DNA of 64,000 nt, taken from the IMG/VR virus record IMGVR_UViG_3300009011_000012, positions 1 through 64,000 of that record; one strand, 5' to 3'. Each line of letters opens with the position of its first letter. The stretch's first letter is position 1. The notes beneath the pieces are model-generated. The model had not been told where the DNA came from, did not search any database, and saw only the letters and a program-made list of their open reading frames with translations. Positions 11,434 to 18,120 of the stretch are shown one piece after another. The stretch is from a virus. A program made the translations under genes and the position numbers.

Positions 11434-12087
11434 TTAACTGAACGGCCTAGGCTTTAACTCAAGGGCCTTCTCCCAATCAGTTTTTTCTTCAAAATAGGCC
11501 TGATCAGCTTCATTATCATCATCCATAACCTGTTCCATCATAGATGCAGGAAATTTCCTATAGAGGGTCGATACACCAACGTCATAGATGATTGCCACTT
11601 GGTTCCTAGTTAATCCATTACGGATTAAGCGCCCCATTTGTTGCCATTCATCGTAAGAGTATTTTGGAGGCCTCCCGCCAATACGCCCTTTTTTTCTTGC
11701 TGCAGCCAAGCCTGCTCGGGTTCGCTCAATGATGATTTCCCTTTCCATTTCAGCAAGTGCTGACATGATGTGGAAAGTAAACCGCCCCATACTCGTATTG
11801 GTGTTAATCCCCTCCGTTATGGAGAGAAATTTCACATCCATTTTTTTAAATGTTTGCAATAGATCGGCCAGATTGATCAAGGAGCGCCCCAAGCGATCAA
11901 GTTTCCAAACTACAACCGTGTCACCGGGTTTAAGGGTTTTGAGTAATTTGTTCAGGCCCGGGCGCTTTGCTTTAACTCCGGTCATTTTATCTTCAAAAAT
12001 TAGTTCACATTTTGCTCGTTCAATTGCATCACGCTGTAATTCAGGATTTTGGTCATTTGTTGACACCCTAACATAGCCAATTCGCAT
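11434..12087 (-). CDS. cin: Serine DNA invertase (Cin/Min/Gin family)
   Basis: MRIGYVRVSTNDQN, VVWKLDRLGRS, GRIGGRPP, C-terminal HTH VSTLYRKFP; adjacent to cix-like sites. Confidence 0.92.
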   Translation of the reverse strand: MRIGYVRVSTNDQNPELQRDAIERAKCELIFEDKMTGVKAKRPGLNKLLKTLKPGDTVVVWKLDRLGRSLINLADLLQTFKKMDVKFLSITEGINTNTSMGRFTFHIMSALAEMEREIIIERTRAGLAAARKKGRIGGRPPKYSYDEWQQMGRLIRNGLTRNQVAIIYDVGVSTLYRKFPASMMEQVMDDDNEADQAYFEEKTDWEKALELKPRPFS

Positions 12088-12165
12088 AACTTTTAACCAA
12101 TTAAATACCCTTTAAAAAGTGACTGATTGTAAACAAGAATCGGCAAGCATTTCATTCAAAACGTT

Positions 12166-12510
12166 GGTTTAAGAGAAGCAAGGTTTGTAACAAGCAGAGG
12201 TCGTAATGCGAATGGTCAATGGATTATTTGGTCTGATGGAGCTATCGAGGTTATGGGTTATGGCGTAACCATTGAAAATGGATTGGCCACAGTAACGTAT
12301 CCGATCGAGTTACCTGATGTGAGCCGTTATATCAGTATTGCTGAACGGCTTGCTGGGGACTCTGGTACTGCGTTCAATTCTACTCATACATCTATGGTCA
12401 TCGACTCATTAACAACAAAAGCGGGTTTTAAAGCTCGTTGCACAATGGCAGCAACGGGTGCTCCTTCAAGCAATGGATTTTCATGGAGAGTGTACTATGC
12501 GCCTATTTAA
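12166..12510 (+). CDS. Silent tail-fibre variable cassette Sv1
   Basis: GLREARFVTSRG...WRVYYAPI; no own start; begins at the crossover site. Confidence 0.85.
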   Translation, partial: GLREARFVTSRGRNANGQWIIWSDGAIEVMGYGVTIENGLATVTYPIELPDVSRYISIAERLAGDSGTAFNSTHTSMVIDSLTTKAGFKARCTMAATGAPSSNGFSWRVYYAPI

Positions 12511-12694
12511 TCCCAAAACAATGACAGAAGTAATACCAGGCTTTCATGATATCGCTGGTGCTATTGAACTACCCGAGGATAATTGGTTTTTTAGAGAAAA
12601 TGTAATTCCGGAAGGAAAAATGCTCGCCGTTACTCAATCAGGCGAGCCAATTTTGGTCGATGTTAATTCAGCGCGGGAGGAGTCGGATAGGTGA
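12497..12694 (+). CDS. Short tail-fibre assembly-like protein
   Basis: MRLFNPKTMTE...PEGKMLAVTQSGEPILVD; overlaps the Sv1 stop. Confidence 0.65.
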   Translation: MRLFNPKTMTEVIPGFHDIAGAIELPEDNWFFRENVIPEGKMLAVTQSGEPILVDVNSAREESDR

Positions 12695-12769
12695 TGTTGG
12701 GTGCTGAGGTGATATCTACCTCCTTGAGCGCCTTAATATAGAGCATGAAAAGCATACGCGCTTAACGTT

Positions 12770-13114
12770 GGTTTAGGAGAGGCAGCGAAAATGGAGGCTG
12801 TCACAGCCCAATTAGCGGTTAATGGATGGCTTAAAATTCCTTTGCCAGGAGATCAAAATATTTATCTTCAGTGGACTGTTCTTACTTCGTCAAAAATCGA
12901 TATAAGCGGTGGAGAGATAGATGTCATGTCTTTCACGTGGCCTATAGCTTTCCCACATGGCGTACTGGCAATAAGTAATTCAGCAAACACCTATGTTCAA
13001 GCAGTTAGAAGCATCGAAGGTGCTAACCGATTGGGAGGGAAGCTGTTAGTAATGGCGCATAGCGGCAATATCGCACACACACCTGTGACAAGTATCATGG
13101 CGATCGGGTATTAA
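12770..13114 (+). CDS. Silent tail-fibre variable cassette Sv2
   Basis: GLGEAAK...GWLKIP...YLQW...WPIAFP...AIGY. Confidence 0.88.
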   Translation, partial: GLGEAAKMEAVTAQLAVNGWLKIPLPGDQNIYLQWTVLTSSKIDISGGEIDVMSFTWPIAFPHGVLAISNSANTYVQAVRSIEGANRLGGKLLVMAHSGNIAHTPVTSIMAIGY

Positions 13115-13220
13115 AGGTTGTTTTTTCACACTAATCGAAATACCCGGAGGCAAGATGCTCGCCAAAAATGAAACCGGCGAGCCAATTTTGATTGGAATTA
13201 GTTATGTTCAGGAGGAATTT
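13115..13220 (+). pseudogene. Degenerate remnant of the short assembly gene
   Basis: ATACCCGGAGGCAAGATGCTCGCC...GGCGAGCCAATTTTG closely copies about 12605-12657; 5' part missing. Confidence 0.55.
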
Positions 13221-13262
13221 GCAGGTTGATATTAGATACTATGCAGATTTCTTCTGTGAAAG

Positions 13263-13601
13263 TTATTTACCTATGGCAATAATCATGGTCCCGTACTTTC
13301 CTGCCTTTGATGTTTTGATTTTCGCGAGCGTTCGATCACCTCCTATGATTTTGTACGTAGGCGCTTCTGTCTGTGTTGGATCTACCCACATAGCGGATAT
13401 TGCTAACAACGAATAGGGAAAAGCTACCGGGTAAACTGCTGGTGTTCCCTCTAAATCTGAGCTGTAAACATCAACTGAAAAGACCTGTACAATATGGCCG
13501 CTAGGTAATTTGAACCATCTCAGATCAGAAGTGAATGAACTCATATCGGGGAGCTGATTTGCGCCGGTGCCTACTGTTCTTTTCGCTGCCTCTCCTAAAC
13601 C
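13263..13601 (-). CDS. Silent tail-fibre variable cassette Sv3
   Basis: GLGEAAKRTVGTGANQLPDM...FKLPSG...YPVAFP...AIGK. Confidence 0.88.
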   Translation of the reverse strand, partial: GLGEAAKRTVGTGANQLPDMSSFTSDLRWFKLPSGHIVQVFSVDVYSSDLEGTPAVYPVAFPYSLLAISAMWVDPTQTEAPTYKIIGGDRTLAKIKTSKAGKYGTMIIAIGK

Positions 13602-13635
13602 AACGATTTTAGAGTATAAATTTAATACTACGCGT

Positions 13636-13992
13636 TCAGCATCCCATCACAATGAAGAATATGGAATTTGTAGTCGGTGTTACGTAGGTAAAGTTAACTT
13701 GAGAACGGGAAGTAAGTGCCGTATTAAATCCAACGGACCGTACAGACGGATCTTGTGTACTAAACATTGCGATAACAGAAAGTAATGCTGTAGGCATTGC
13801 GATTGGGAGGTTTACATATTTATTTGAAACCACACCATTCGTTGTGTCTACAGCAAACCATCCCCATTGAATGATCAAACCACCAGGCAATTTTGAATAG
13901 CCGTTAGTGCTCATGTTGCTTGAGAAAAATGACATATCCGGTATCTGGTTAGCAGCAGAACCAATTGATCGTTTCGCTGCCTCTCCTAAACC
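13636..13992 (-). CDS. Silent tail-fibre variable cassette Sv4
   Basis: GLGEAAKRSIG...KLPGGLIIQWG...VMGC. Confidence 0.88.
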   Translation of the reverse strand, partial: GLGEAAKRSIGSAANQIPDMSFFSSNMSTNGYSKLPGGLIIQWGWFAVDTTNGVVSNKYVNLPIAMPTALLSVIAMFSTQDPSVRSVGFNTALTSRSQVNFTYVTPTTNSIFFIVMGC

Positions 13993-14031
13993 AACGTATG
14001 CAGTGCTTAAAAAATACACGCGCTTAACGTT

Positions 14032-14397
14032 GGTTTAGGAGAAGCTGCTAAGAGAAGTATTGGGAACGGCGCAAATCAGGTTCCTGATATGGGTTTTTTC
14101 AAATCTCAGATAGGATCTAACGGCTACGCTTGCTCTCCAAGCGGATACATTTTGCAATGGGGCCTACTTACCGGGGGGAATCAGTATGATTTTAACTTTC
14201 CCATATCTTTCCCTACCGGAGGTTTCATTTTAATTGGAATGGCACATACTACCGATACTGCCGGTGTAACTGCACTATCGATAGTAAATGGGTTTATCAG
14301 AGGTAATTCTGCAGGATATTTAGCAAGTGCCAATATCATTAACGGGGCACCTCAGTATTTCGCTAGATCGATACAGTGGTTTGCCTTAGGAAAATGA
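14032..14397 (+). CDS. Silent tail-fibre variable cassette Sv5
   Basis: GLGEAAKRSIGNG...ILQWG...FPISFP...WFALGK. Confidence 0.88.
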   Translation, partial: GLGEAAKRSIGNGANQVPDMGFFKSQIGSNGYACSPSGYILQWGLLTGGNQYDFNFPISFPTGGFILIGMAHTTDTAGVTALSIVNGFIRGNSAGYLASANIINGAPQYFARSIQWFALGK

Positions 14398-14406
14398 TAA
14401 TTTCAG

Positions 14407-14763
14407 TTAGTAACCAAGCATAATATAACAAGCTGTTTGGAGTCTCGTTGGGATGTGTGGGTATGGTGCATTAGAAACGTCTCTAAAGACTGCAGAAAAT
14501 CCAATGGTTGACCGAGGACCGAAGGAAGCAGTGAAGCCACCATTGATGGTATCGACTCCAGTCAGTAATCCACTTAAAACCCCACTGGGAAAAGCAATCG
14601 GATAGGTTGCTTCTCCCACTGTGCCTGCTCCAGAATTTGAAACCGTCCCCCATTGAAGGAGCAAAATTTTTTGTTTCCCCGCCTCACTTAATGGAATCTT
14701 CAAGTACCCTCCAGCGGAAATTAGTCCTAGGATGCCGCTACGATCTGAGGCCTCTCCTAAACC
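14407..14763 (-). CDS. Silent tail-fibre variable cassette Sv6
   Basis: GLGEASDRSG...LLLQWG...YPIAFP...MLGY. Confidence 0.88.
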   Translation of the reverse strand, partial: GLGEASDRSGILGLISAGGYLKIPLSEAGKQKILLLQWGTVSNSGAGTVGEATYPIAFPSGVLSGLLTGVDTINGGFTASFGPRSTIGFSAVFRDVSNAPYPHIPTRLQTACYIMLGY

Positions 14764-14799
14764 AACGTATTAAGCGCTCAAAAGGTATACTCTGAAGTA

Positions 14800-15180
14800 T
14801 CAATACCCGATTGCAAACCAGCAGAAGCTGTTTCCTCCCCCGCTACTTGAGACGTAGGCAGTAGTCGAGTGGAGTGACCATGTAAATTTACCGGCTGAAT
14901 ATGGATAGGCACTTGCTATATAAGTATTAATAACATCGTTTGACGAGGTAATGATATTTATCACCGAATTTGGGAAAGTGATAGGGAAATTTCTTTCTCC
15001 AATATACTTACTTACACTGCCTCCGAGTACAGCATAGGCACTATGTTCTCCCGAGTAATCAACCCTTATTCTCCCCCACTGAACTATCAACTTTTTTCCA
15101 TCTTTGGTTGGAACTGCCAACCATCCATCCACATCTTGTGCGCCTTCTGCAGGTTTTAGTTTGATGACTTCTTCTAAACC
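14800..15180 (-). CDS. Silent tail-fibre variable cassette Sv7
   Basis: GLEEVIKLKP...LIVQWG...FPITFP...WFAIGY. Confidence 0.88.
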   Translation of the reverse strand, partial: GLEEVIKLKPAEGAQDVDGWLAVPTKDGKKLIVQWGRIRVDYSGEHSAYAVLGGSVSKYIGERNFPITFPNSVINIITSSNDVINTYIASAYPYSAGKFTWSLHSTTAYVSSSGGGNSFCWFAIGY

Positions 15181-15219
15181 AACGTTAAGCGCGTGTATTT
15201 TTTAAGCACTGCATACGTT

Positions 15220-15585
15220 GGTTTGGGAGAAGCTGCGCGACGTGATATCGGCACGGGGTCAAATCAACTCCCGGAGATGAGTATGTTCGCTAGCGCATTT
15301 AGTGGCGCAAGCGGTTACTGCAAGCTGCCTAATGGCGTAATATTGCAAAGTGCCGCCATTAGTGGCATTCCTGCTGGCGGTTCGCTTGAAGTCACCTATC
15401 CGATCCCATTTCCTAACCTAATGATGTTTGTAATTGCAGCCCCGGCGATCGCTGCTAATGGAACAACACCCATTTCAATTGCGATAGACGCAGCATCTGT
15501 AACCGACCCCAAAAAAACCATCATGATAAGGAATATTTCAACAGTAAATAATGGTGGGACGCGCCTGTTTGCGTTAGGTAGATAG
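15220..15585 (+). CDS. Silent tail-fibre variable cassette Sv8
   Basis: GLGEAARRDIGTG...KLPNG...YPIPFP...FALGR. Confidence 0.88.
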   Translation, partial: GLGEAARRDIGTGSNQLPEMSMFASAFSGASGYCKLPNGVILQSAAISGIPAGGSLEVTYPIPFPNLMMFVIAAPAIAANGTTPISIAIDAASVTDPKKTIMIRNISTVNNGGTRLFALGR

Positions 15586-15662
15586 CGAATAGGCAAACAA
15601 CGAATTTTATGCACCTATTTCACATAGTTCATAGCATTGAATCTTCATGTGAGAGGGCAAAT

Positions 15663-16136
15663 ATGGAATACTTTTACAGCGCTTCAACAAATGCTTTTTA
15701 TCCAGCGGCTTTGTTGGACAGTTACAAACAGGCCGGAACTCTACCTGATGACATCCAATCAGTAGGGGAGGATGTTTTCATGGAATTTACCGCAACACAA
15801 TTAGGTATGCGACGAGTGCCCAATCAGGAGGGTTTCCCCATGTGGGAGGCCATACCTGCAGTGGTGCTGACTCAGGACGAGATAAAAAGTAAAGCAAGAA
15901 AGTTACGTGATAGCTTCATATCCGCAACAGATAGCATGCTCGTTTCAGACTACACCATTAACGATACCGAGCTCACCGAGGATGAAAGGGAGGAGCTAAT
16001 GAGCGTCAGGCTCACCTTCAAGAAATGGCCAACAAATGATGGCTGGCCTGGTATAGCATTACCTGACATTCCTCAATGGTTATTGGTTGAAGCGGTTAAT
16101 AATGGGTACAGAGTATACAGCTGGCCTGAAGAGTAA
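15663..16136 (+). CDS. Tail fibre assembly chaperone (Tfa/U-like)
   Basis: MEYFYSASTNAFYP...LPDD...GFPMW, typical of Tfa. Confidence 0.85.
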   Translation: MEYFYSASTNAFYPAALLDSYKQAGTLPDDIQSVGEDVFMEFTATQLGMRRVPNQEGFPMWEAIPAVVLTQDEIKSKARKLRDSFISATDSMLVSDYTINDTELTEDEREELMSVRLTFKKWPTNDGWPGIALPDIPQWLLVEAVNNGYRVYSWPEE

Positions 16137-16233
16137 AATCATAATATCAAGCACCATATGACATGGTGCTTTTAACTAACTTTTTAGATAGGCATTGTGT
16201 TTTTATTAGGTCATTTAATTGATTCTAAAGACA

Positions 16234-17592
16234 TCAGTATCCGATTGAAAACCACGTAAACATACGGGAGTTACCAGGTAGCGTATCATCAAGGAAAAAC
16301 TGAGCATTAGCGCCGGTTTTCGTTGGGTAGCCGACTGAAACAGCTTGCCTTAAAGTTCTATAGACTGGCACATAATCATAATTTGATGCCCTTACGCCTG
16401 CGCTTGAATATATACCGAAGCAAGCCGACGGGAACGCGACTGGAAACGTAATATCACAATTATATGTAGTGCTTGTTACTCCCCCCTCCCATCGCCCCCA
16501 TTGAAGTATTATTTGCTTACCCCCGTATATAGGCAGGTTTAGCCAACCAGAGCCTAAAAGTGTGCCAGTTGCCGCTGGCAGTTTAGCGGCCTCTCCTAAA
16601 CCAAGGTATTCGAGAATACCGGCAACCGTTTTACCAGAAAGATCTGTGAGGGTTTGGTTAAGCGGCTGCTTGCCATCGAGGGCCTTTTTCATAGTAGATG
16701 CAAACTGGGGATCATTATTCAGCGCAGCAGCAAGCTCACTTAGAGTATCGAGGCCCTCGGGAGTTGAACCACCTACCAGAGCAGAAATCGCCGCCTTAAC
16801 GAAAGCGGTGGTGGCTATCTGTGTGTTATTTACCGTTTGGTCAGCTGTAGGAGCCTTAGGTGTCCCGGTTAACGTCGGGCTCGCCAATGGGGCCTTAAGG
16901 TCTAGTGCCTTATCAATTGTCTGCGCGAAATTACCATCGTTGTTTATCGCTGCGGCTAGCTGGGCCAGTGTAGAGAGGGCTTCCGGCACTCCCTCCCCAG
17001 ACAGGAAGGAAATCGCTTTTTTAATAGCGAGGGAGTTCGCAGCGACCCCTTCTTCTTCGCTATCAAGTTCTGCGCTTAACTGAAGCCCCAAGCTGCGAAA
17101 TACACGGAAAGAGGTGTCTATCATTTCCGATGTAATCTGCGTTGCCCCCTCCGGTACCGCAACCCGGCACAACTCTATTTGGCCGTCTTTTAGTTGCTGA
17201 GCCGTAATAGTAACAATCTCAGCTGCATTAACAGTCGATTCGTCCGTTACTTGGCTCGTTTTCACACCAAACTTATAAAAAGCCTGCAACGCGATAATCG
17301 TTGTCTGGCCAGCAGGGATGTCGACGTCAATATCTAAAATCTGCTGTACTGACAACTGGACGTTATCAATATCAACAGACGCAGCACCGCCTTCATTGCC
17401 GGAGGTCACTGTAACCTTCAGACCGTTGCCAGGCACGACATTAAAACCTGAATAGATTCCAGGCTTAATAATATTTTTAAATTTCCGGTTTAATGCTGTT
17501 GAGGTGTAGGCCTCGTAAAACTGTACGTCTGTGATCAGGCTCTTACGAGAATCTGCGGCCAGAAGGCTCACACCACTAATAGATCCGCTCAT
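16234..17592 (-). CDS. S: Tail fibre protein S (constant part plus currently fused cassette Sv9, 16234-16602)
   Basis: P1 S-like N-terminus (DVQFYEAYTSTALNRK); PEALSTLAQLAAA/PEGLDTLSELAAAL repeats; crossover site inside EYLGLGEAA. Confidence 0.92.
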   Translation of the reverse strand: MSGSISGVSLLAADSRKSLITDVQFYEAYTSTALNRKFKNIIKPGIYSGFNVVPGNGLKVTVTSGNEGGAASVDIDNVQLSVQQILDIDVDIPAGQTTIIALQAFYKFGVKTSQVTDESTVNAAEIVTITAQQLKDGQIELCRVAVPEGATQITSEMIDTSFRVFRSLGLQLSAELDSEEEGVAANSLAIKKAISFLSGEGVPEALSTLAQLAAAINNDGNFAQTIDKALDLKAPLASPTLTGTPKAPTADQTVNNTQIATTAFVKAAISALVGGSTPEGLDTLSELAAALNNDPQFASTMKKALDGKQPLNQTLTDLSGKTVAGILEYLGLGEAAKLPAATGTLLGSGWLNLPIYGGKQIILQWGRWEGGVTSTTYNCDITFPVAFPSACFGIYSSAGVRASNYDYVPVYRTLRQAVSVGYPTKTGANAQFFLDDTLPGNSRMFTWFSIGY

Positions 17593-17594
17593 AC

Positions 17595-18044
17595 TCAGCT
17601 CCCCGCCTGCTCAATCATCATGATGATTGAGTAATTCTTTCCCAGGTATACAGTATCTTGCTGAGTAGCAAGCACGGCGATGGCTTTGTCTTCTGCGTCC
17701 AATAGCACGAGTGTATTGAAGTCGTAAACAGTGTCTTCCTCAAGGCTGTCTTGAGGCAACACGGCATTAAGCGTGATGATGTTCCCCTGAACTGACCGCA
17801 CAAGTTCACATTTCGCGAAGTTGGTAGTCATGTCTTCCAGCACGAAGTCAGTTGGGATATCTGAGATATTCCAACCACCAGCCTCATTCACCGAAACCAG
17901 CGTCGATTTGCCCCAGCATGCCGTTTTGATTTCAAAGCGTTGGCCGTTGCCGATCGCAGACTCCGCGCGGCGTGAGTAGTAGTAATCGAGTAATTGCGCT
18001 TTATAAAGCGTACCGCTAGTACGAGCGGCGAGAACATCAGCCAT
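17595..18044 (-). CDS. R: Tail fibre/baseplate protein R
   Basis: LLDYYYSRRAESAI as in P1 gpR; upstream of S. Confidence 0.8.
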   Translation of the reverse strand: MADVLAARTSGTLYKAQLLDYYYSRRAESAIGNGQRFEIKTACWGKSTLVSVNEAGGWNISDIPTDFVLEDMTTNFAKCELVRSVQGNIITLNAVLPQDSLEEDTVYDFNTLVLLDAEDKAIAVLATQQDTVYLGKNYSIIMMIEQAGS

Positions 18045-18120
18045 TTAAATCCCCTCAAAATGCACTGAGAGGAGTTCGAGCCCTTGAGTGGAATCAAACT
18101 CCGCAAGTGGTAGTCTGCGG

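Follow-up and report, generated by a model that had tools for sequence, protein, structure and literature searches.

How many alternative receptor-binding ends can be stored behind a single phage tail-fibre gene, and are all of them within reach of expression? The question is raised by the IMG/VR virus record IMGVR_UViG_3300009011_000012, a sequence of 89,473 bp with terminal repeats, of which positions 1 to 64,000 form the window analysed here (64,000 nucleotides, nt; coordinates and strands refer to it unless another sequence is named). The locus, at 11,434 to 17,592, comprises a serine DNA invertase gene, a region of invertible DNA holding short tip cassettes and the constant part of the tail-fibre gene S. 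An earlier note on this DNA had proposed nine alternative tips served by one invertase. The sequence supports that proposal, and more than one arrangement of the region is found in contigs from public runs and in relatives. The locus is very probably a Min-type multiple DNA-inversion system by which a P1/D6-like phage-plasmid from the Enterobacter cloacae complex changes its receptor-binding fibre tip, and the switch is active, judging from alternative junctions in public contigs and assemblies.

Crossover sites, tip cassettes and invertase

The 16-mer ACGTTGGTTTAGGAGA, allowed at most one mismatch, is found at 12161+, 12765+, 13591-, 13982-, 14027+, 14753-, 15170-, 15215+ and 16592-. These nine sites (four forward, five reverse) bear out the number and orientations of cix-like sites given in the earlier note; all lie within 12161-16607, and the 89,473-bp record holds no more. 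At up to three mismatches, 11 matches are obtained as opposed to 0.39 expected, a count reached in none of 100 shuffles, and a control pattern gave no match across the full record. The same motif scan recovered exactly the two annotated cix sites in P1, and likewise in D6. Two three-mismatch matches (17888- and 49726+) were dismissed as chance, and neither heads a cassette.

Each site spans 26 bp, laid out as two 12-bp arms around a 2-bp core, which is TT at all nine. Site 1 (12152-12177, +) combines the fixed invertase-side outer arm O1 with the arm of cassette 1, GGTTTAAGAGAA, which is the arm of P1 cixL/cixR. It is followed by the motif matches that form site 2 (12756-12781, +), site 3 (13590-13615, -), site 4 (13981-14006, -), site 5 (14018-14043, +), site 6 (14752-14777, -), site 7 (15169-15194, -) and site 8 (15206-15231, +). 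Site 9 (16591-16616, -) is the expression site, with its outer arm inside the constant part of S. The cassette-side arm equals or nearly equals the annotated P1 cixL/cixR arm at all nine sites, and the outer arm matches the dyad at 8/12 positions in the expression site as opposed to 3-6/12 in the eight storage sites. Despite these weak dyads, the outer arms retain A-(A/T)-(A/T)-C adjoining the core. Arms and core fit the Mu/P1/e14/p15B/S. boydii consensus as tabulated in PMC4134206 (Table 3). Sites 4 and 5 lie 45 bp apart, start to start, around a 29-bp spacer (13998-14026) which is the reverse complement of a second, inverted copy at 15186-15214. Pairs of sites 45 bp apart are also present in two related plasmids, L001 (NZ_CP074151.1; 5923/5968) and L002 (NZ_CP085744; 7338/7383 and 8505/8550).

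The constant part of S (16606-17592, -; 328-329 amino acids, aa) belongs to PHROG tail fibre families. In tblastn searches 92-95% of its length aligns with S of P1, P7 and D6 at 52% identity, and it is 98% identical in two Enterobacter plasmids. The S open reading frame (ORF) currently encodes 452 aa (16234-17592, -) and includes cassette C9 (16234-16605, -; 123 aa), the tip fused at present, as had been stated for the same cassette under the name Sv9. All nine sites open a (V/L)GL(G/R/E)E frame which runs uninterrupted for 113-127 aa to a stop codon; the lengths of 112-126 aa reported earlier are the same apart from the counting start. The gp53-like C-terminal domain PF21882 matches all nine tips. 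It scores above the curated cut-off in six of them, namely C4 (13636-13995, -; 119 aa; E 2.7e-13), C5 (14029-14397, +; 122 aa; E 3.3e-09), C6 (14407-14766, -; 119 aa; E 7.3e-08), C7 (14800-15183, -; 127 aa; E 8e-10), C8 (15217-15585, +; 122 aa; E 6.8e-10) and C9 (E 6.1e-11). The matches fall below the cut-off, at E 0.002-0.006, in C1 (12163-12510, +; 115 aa; E 0.0057), C2 (12767-13114, +; 115 aa; E 0.0053) and C3 (13263-13604, -; 113 aa; E 0.002).

Pairwise identity between the tips is 18-33%. A profile built from all nine matches the R1-pyocin fibre 6cxb (E 7.6e-10), 6cl5 (E 2e-09) and 4mtm (E 3.7e-08), and the matched part of the R1-/R2-type pyocin fibres and of 4mtm is the last ~100 residues, the C-terminal foot. 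As far as sequence similarity tells, a single domain, the gp53-like / R-pyocin fibre foot, has diverged into all nine tips. The common framework ascribed to them earlier largely holds. In the tip alignment, Q and both prolines of PxxxP are invariant and the C-terminus reads xG(Y/K/R/C) in eight of the nine; QWG is confined to five, and C1 ends in API.

C8 is the sole cassette followed by a chaperone gene, the co-oriented tail fibre assembly gene tfa (15609-16136, +; 175 aa; phrog_188, E 5.5e-33), whose product scores below the cut-off for Pfam Phage_tail_APC and is 96-99% conserved in L001 and L002. A 78-aa ORF behind C1 (12458-12694, +), 96% conserved in L002, matches positions 1-62 of the 145-position phrog_5400; it has no Pfam match and no likeness to the tfa gene, and from its sequence it reads as the N-terminal remnant of a longer gene. 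An ENA protein of 244 aa (P0169) is 92% identical across the full C1 and continues into a PF02413 tail-fibre assembly domain, an architecture which hints that the 78-aa ORF is perhaps a leftover chaperone.

The invertase gene (11434-12087, -) lies outside the invertible DNA and encodes a 217-aa serine DNA invertase of the Gin/Cin/Min type, with the Pfam domains Resolvase (E 9.5e-46) and HTH_7 (E 9e-16) and membership in PHROG 125 (DNA invertase). It matches the Gin structures 3uj3/4m6f over residues 1-190 (E 1e-71) and is 64% identical to Cin of both P1 and D6. The earlier note had named an inactive invertase as a way in which its proposal could fail; the enzyme is full length and retains the catalytic serine motif (YVRVSTNDQ). 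It is the sole recombinase at the locus and the one invertase in the whole record. A strict shufflon, with a tyrosine recombinase and sfx/rix sites, is ruled out by the serine invertase. The gene is oriented opposite to cin of P1/D6, which turns its 5' end towards site 1. At its C-terminus the enzyme has an acidic tail of ~27 residues (~190-217; window 11434-11520) that is absent from Gin and Cin; six IMG/VR relatives (L011-L014, L016 and L076) match the invertase up to residue 210, which indicates that the tail is kept in the clade.

Within the invertase gene, nt 19-90 (11998-12069, -) align gaplessly with the annotated enhancer of P1 cin. The two stretches agree at 53/72 nt, for which coding constraint alone could suffice. 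Fis-like G-N13-C words occur at nt 22-36 and 71-85, 49 bp apart, the second at the same position as in P1 cin, and the stretch lies ~95-167 bp from site 1. These features are suggestive of a Fis-dependent enhancer. Promoter-like and terminator-like matches were not in excess of those in shuffled sequence (7 vs 13.9 and 7 vs 6.3, respectively). A promoter-like match before the invertase (12155-12126, -) lies in the fixed flank and is not above chance.

Junctions in assemblies and public runs

A search with the S protein revealed near-identical constant parts carrying different tips, in proteins of 442-452 aa encoded on 88-91 kb contigs, mostly from E. hormaechei. The constant part is fused to C6 in two of these proteins (P0001, P0124), to C5 in five (P0003, P0005-P0008), to C3 in four (P0004, P0009 and the partial P0128 and P0133) and to C1 in the partial P0125. 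Together with C9 in the window protein, five of the nine tips (C1, C3, C5, C6 and C9) have been caught at the expression site. In a further protein, P0002, the constant part is fused to a tenth tip which is absent from the window and stored in L002. A search of the nine-tip profile against longer proteins added no fusions to the constant part beyond this known set. Many "partial" S proteins (325-333 aa), on contigs of 82-89 kb, stop within a few residues of the site. Such ends are the expected assembly effect of a heterogeneous or repeated junction, and the switch explains both the assembly breaks in S and its annotation as "partial" or "hypothetical" in these plasmids.

The plasmid L002 has C8, C5, C6, C1, C2 and C3 in common with the window; inversions of segments separate the two arrangements, in order as well as in orientation. 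The point of exchange can be read from natural sequence markers. Stored cassettes begin with V (GTT), behind an outer arm ending in ACG or TCG; the arm of the constant part ends in ACC, and fused proteins always read L (CTT). One cassette stored in L002 has C for G directly after TT and reads VRLGE, and its fused form, P0002, reads YLRLGE. The V/L and R markers place the join between the bases flanking TT, in the 2-bp core, where Cin, Gin and Hin also exchange strands.

The stretch or part of it is contained in 20 public runs from 11 studies, with half or more of the sampled words present in 18 of them; the sources are isolates, mouse metagenomes and a rhizosphere sample. For four runs from four studies (X2, X5, X7 and X15), contigs were placed on 11000-18100. 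The contig records are at least 99% alike in 14/14, 27/30, 39/46 and 39/44 cases, and the four runs show 11 differing positions in total and no insertions or deletions (indels). Runs that differ from the window at 2 to 7 of 7,101 positions nevertheless carry different arrangements, and in all four, contigs stop at sites with ends that bear partners absent from the window. One X2 contig passes from 13606 directly to 14028 on the other strand, which links the outer arm of site 3 to C5, and has flanks of 392 and 738 nt. In the same run, the invertase-side flank leads into a C3-like start, the constant part into C6, which has two partners, and both C9 and C8 are attached to spacer-type arms. The invertase-side flank leads into C5, and C9 into spacer-type arms, in both X5 and X15. 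Three different outer arms are found behind the C6 site in X15, and the outer arm of site 6 is joined to both a C2/C3-type start and C5 in X7.

Several points weigh against the reading of an active switch between nine usable tips. The run evidence comes from short-read contigs, which break at repeats of at least 31 nt whatever the population; such breaks apply to sites 4, 5, 7 and 8, with their common 29-bp spacer plus site, and loose ends of 8-13 nt resolve groups of partners only (C2 vs C3; O2/O5/O7; O4/O8). Dyad symmetry is poor (3-6/12) in the outer arms of all eight storage sites, and the candidate enhancer comes from an alignment inside a conserved coding region. None of the public assemblies and runs shows C2, C4, C7 or C8 at the expression site. 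C1-C3 fall below the Pfam cut-off, C1 has an atypical end and is frameshifted in L002, and a single tip (C8) has a chaperone gene behind it.

The first of these points bears on whether general homologous recombination, or assembly errors at repeats, could have produced the alternative junctions with no role for the invertase. Repeats of 41-127 nt with 76-83% identity do lie beside some sites, the 29-bp spacer is duplicated together with its two sites, and short-read contigs break at such repeats. Junctions also occur, however, at sites where the partners have merely 11-26 nt in common, such as site 1, and repeat-driven breakage does not explain the break at that site or the long X2 contig with its 392- and 738-nt flanks on either side of a novel junction. 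The V/L and R markers put the exchange in the 2-bp core, and whole fusions of different kinds are encoded by complete 88-91 kb assemblies of several origins. The invertase is intact in 3/3 complete relatives. We regard recombination or misassembly independent of the invertase as highly improbable.

The near-identity of the runs bears likewise on whether the locus is a frozen relic, in which lineage differences date from old events and switching has ceased. That the locus can decay is shown by L002, and the run evidence consists of short-read contigs. A relic is hard to square with different arrangements at 2 to 7 differences in 7,101 positions, and with the two or three partners present within single runs at the C6 site in X15, the site 6 outer arm in X7 and C6 in X2. 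It strikes us as extremely improbable, and the reading of an active inversion switch is retained below.

Reach of the switch and size of the working repertoire

The crossover points divide the region into eight modules flanked by two fixed arms, one on the invertase side and one in the constant part. Three modules hold two tips (C2/C3, C5/C6 and C8-tfa-C9), three hold one tip and one outer arm (C1, C4 and C7), and the remaining two are identical 29-bp adapters with two outer arms back to back (module D, 13998-14026, and module G, 15186-15214). Enumeration of all inversions between oppositely oriented sites yields 129,024 reachable arrangements, or 64,512 distinct sequences once the identity of the two spacers is taken into account. 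From the present state, a single inversion suffices to bring C1, C2, C5 or C8 to the expression site and two to bring C3, C4, C6 or C7, so that overlapping, repeated inversions among the eight modules can bring any of the nine tips to expression. A module order that fits all X2 junctions lies seven inversions away, an order pieced together from several contigs and not read from one molecule. Any single assembly thus reports one of many isomers.

In the mechanism proposed here, one Gin/Cin-family serine invertase would act on nine 26-bp cix-like sites. Each site covers the codons (Y)-L/V-G-L-G-E, where the 328-aa constant part meets a stored tip of ~115-125 aa. Strand exchange in the TT core of two opposed sites would invert the intervening DNA and swap the tips behind their outer arms. 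A lysogen population and the virions released from it would then carry a mix of nine receptor specificities, a form of host-range bet-hedging. By analogy with R-pyocin fibres, the receptors are probably glycans of the cell surface, either lipopolysaccharide (LPS) or others. The switch may depend on Fis and an enhancer, and every tip is presumed to be functional.

How the sites might choose their partners is suggested by their symmetry. A good two-armed dyad is present at the expression site only, while each storage site has one conserved and one weak arm. Storage sites could on this basis pair preferentially with the expression site, in a hub-and-spoke pattern under which inversions would more often change the expressed tip than silently reorder the stored ones, with nine chaperone-free tips each reading a different Enterobacter surface glycan. 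The junctions in the four runs are producible via such a hub or by storage-to-storage exchange alike, and we consider the hub-and-spoke pattern unlikely.

The presumption that every tip works has to be weighed against a smaller repertoire, in which the switch is active and functional tips are mixed with decaying or orphan cassettes. The claim in the earlier note that all nine tips are apparently maintained holds for their frames, which are intact in the window and free of indels in the four near-identical runs; five of the nine have been seen fused. In favour of the smaller repertoire, C1, C2 and C3 score under the Pfam cut-off; C1 ends in API and is followed by the remnant ORF, and in L002 it is frameshifted, with C2 and C3 truncated beside an insertion sequence (IS) element. 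The chaperone gene accompanies C8 alone, and four tips were never seen fused. The weak scorers C1 and C3 do, however, occur at the expression site in public assemblies, and other phages maintain close relatives of C2, C3 and C9. A working repertoire below nine is less likely than not on this evidence.

Relatives and known inversion systems

The gene order near the locus (DarA-like, Hdf-like, LydB-like, holin, invertase, invertible region, S, R-like, baseplate genes) matches that of P1 and D6 across the neighbourhood of the tail-fibre switch. The R-like gene (17595-18044, -; phrog_2032, E 2.2e-59) lies upstream of S in the same operon direction, at the position of R in P1/D6. The DarA-like protein (7832-9874, -; 680 aa) has a long run of (E/Q)P dipeptide repeats separating DarA_N from DarA_C. 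The closest complete relatives are circular, non-mobilizable plasmids of 88-91 kb from Enterobacter sp. and E. hormaechei, and the plasmid-phage circulates in the Enterobacter cloacae complex. Megablast with the region gave only three matching records among plasmids and none among phage records, a search with the constant part for related loci gave none among viral contigs or genome contigs, and a 38-nt word taken from where the constant part ends had no exact match in metagenome and genome contigs (the record itself possibly being excluded). This Enterobacter plasmid switch was not found described in literature searches.

The window and its plasmid relatives L001 and L002 store different sets of tips. 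Five sites are present in L001 and nine in L002, a RefSeq plasmid from the same lineage in which IS elements have damaged part of the locus. In L002 (NZ_CP085744.1, 3406-10800), IS3-family elements interrupt the expressed S gene and the C2/C3 module; its invertase is intact (99.5%), yet absent from the PLSDB gene table. L001 stores, at 3863-5923, two 147-aa tips of another type, each with its own tail fibre assembly gene, adjoining gp53-like tips, which indicates that a single switch can mix tip families. Four IMG/VR contigs of 4-10 kb (L050, L052, L068 and L071) carry tips 80-95% identical to C9, C3 and C2, beside invertases merely 63-65% identical to that of the window. The presence of relatives of C2, C3 and C9 in other, smaller phage contigs, together with the differing tip sets, points to an open pool of cassettes exchanged between phages. 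The nine homologous tips of the window, with more across relatives, form a natural set with a defined junction for the study of receptor recognition.

The size of the locus was compared in a census of 80 IMG/VR loci, picked by invertase likeness (57-88% identical), and two plasmids, with a motif tuned to the window site. The maximum was six sites in one locus (L015), followed by four in two loci, with mostly two or none elsewhere. A motif-free count of 11-mers over the 80 loci placed none above the window, and in a tblastn census of tips no locus had more than four or five tip-like places. An exact 15-mer occurred in 77 other IMG/VR stretches in at most two copies each, a scan to which diverged sites are invisible. 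The window locus is the largest found among the 80 related IMG/VR loci and among the published systems consulted, which have up to six tips; larger ones may exist outside this sample.

Among its closest known counterparts are Cin of P1/D6 and Gin of Mu, which belong to the same enzyme family (64% identity to Cin; E 1e-71 in the match with Gin). P1 cix and the window sites agree in the cassette-side half and the TT core, and the switch of P1/D6 occupies the same place in S, among the same neighbouring genes. In P1 and D6, however, two sites switch between two long Sv+U alternatives, whereas the window has nine sites with short tips, and S has 452 aa as opposed to 939-988 aa in D6 and P1. The statement in the earlier note that the locus is larger than P1 Cin is confirmed by this count of nine sites against two, and the locus illustrates the extent to which the classical Cin/Min host-range switch can be enlarged, with nine compact receptor-binding domains at one splice point.

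The Min system of p15B, reportedly the subject of work by Sandmeier, Iida and Arber in 1990-1992, belongs to a P1-related plasmid prophage and relies on a single serine invertase of the Din family. Its crossover sites, six in number, reportedly lie in both orientations at the border between the constant and variable parts of the tail-fibre gene S, and overlapping invertible segments reportedly give rise to many isomers. The window locus has the Min-type features of more than two sites in both orientations, one cluster, one invertase and, as its target, S of a P1-related plasmid prophage. It has nine sites as opposed to the six reported for p15B Min; unlike p15B Min, its tips are gp53-like foot domains of ~115-125 aa, eight of the nine lack a chaperone gene, and two 29-bp adapters are present. 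Multiple inversion in p15B Min is briefly described in PMC6109161.

Swapping of fibre ends has also been described for FRphi, an Enterobacter phage in which, according to the report (Nat Microbiol 2026, PMC13418256), a gin-type recombinase swaps C-terminal fibre isoforms. Isomers are seen there in long reads, deletion of gin locks the state, and one isoform alone infects the test host. FRphi is described there as an integrated, lambda-regulated prophage with three tips, and related loci as having "up to six" paralogs. The window locus differs from it in having nine tips and in belonging to a P1/D6-like plasmid prophage. The R-type pyocin fibres (6cxb, 6cl5) and the putative tail fibre 4mtm have the PF21882 family in common with the window tips, a homology at the level of sequence only.

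Two further systems are the Rin shufflon of Bifidobacterium prophages, with five variants and a tyrosine recombinase, and the R64/IncI shufflon (Rci), in which a tyrosine recombinase acts on a pilus adhesin, as summarized in PMC6109161. R64 and Rin resemble the window locus in having several short sites and multiple inversions that swap the C-terminal ends of a surface-recognition protein. The window locus uses a serine invertase, so the term "shufflon", applied to it in the earlier note, is only loosely apt. Its mechanism belongs to a type known for a long time; what is new is its size, its chaperone-free minimal cassettes, its two-armed adapter modules and its reversed invertase gene.

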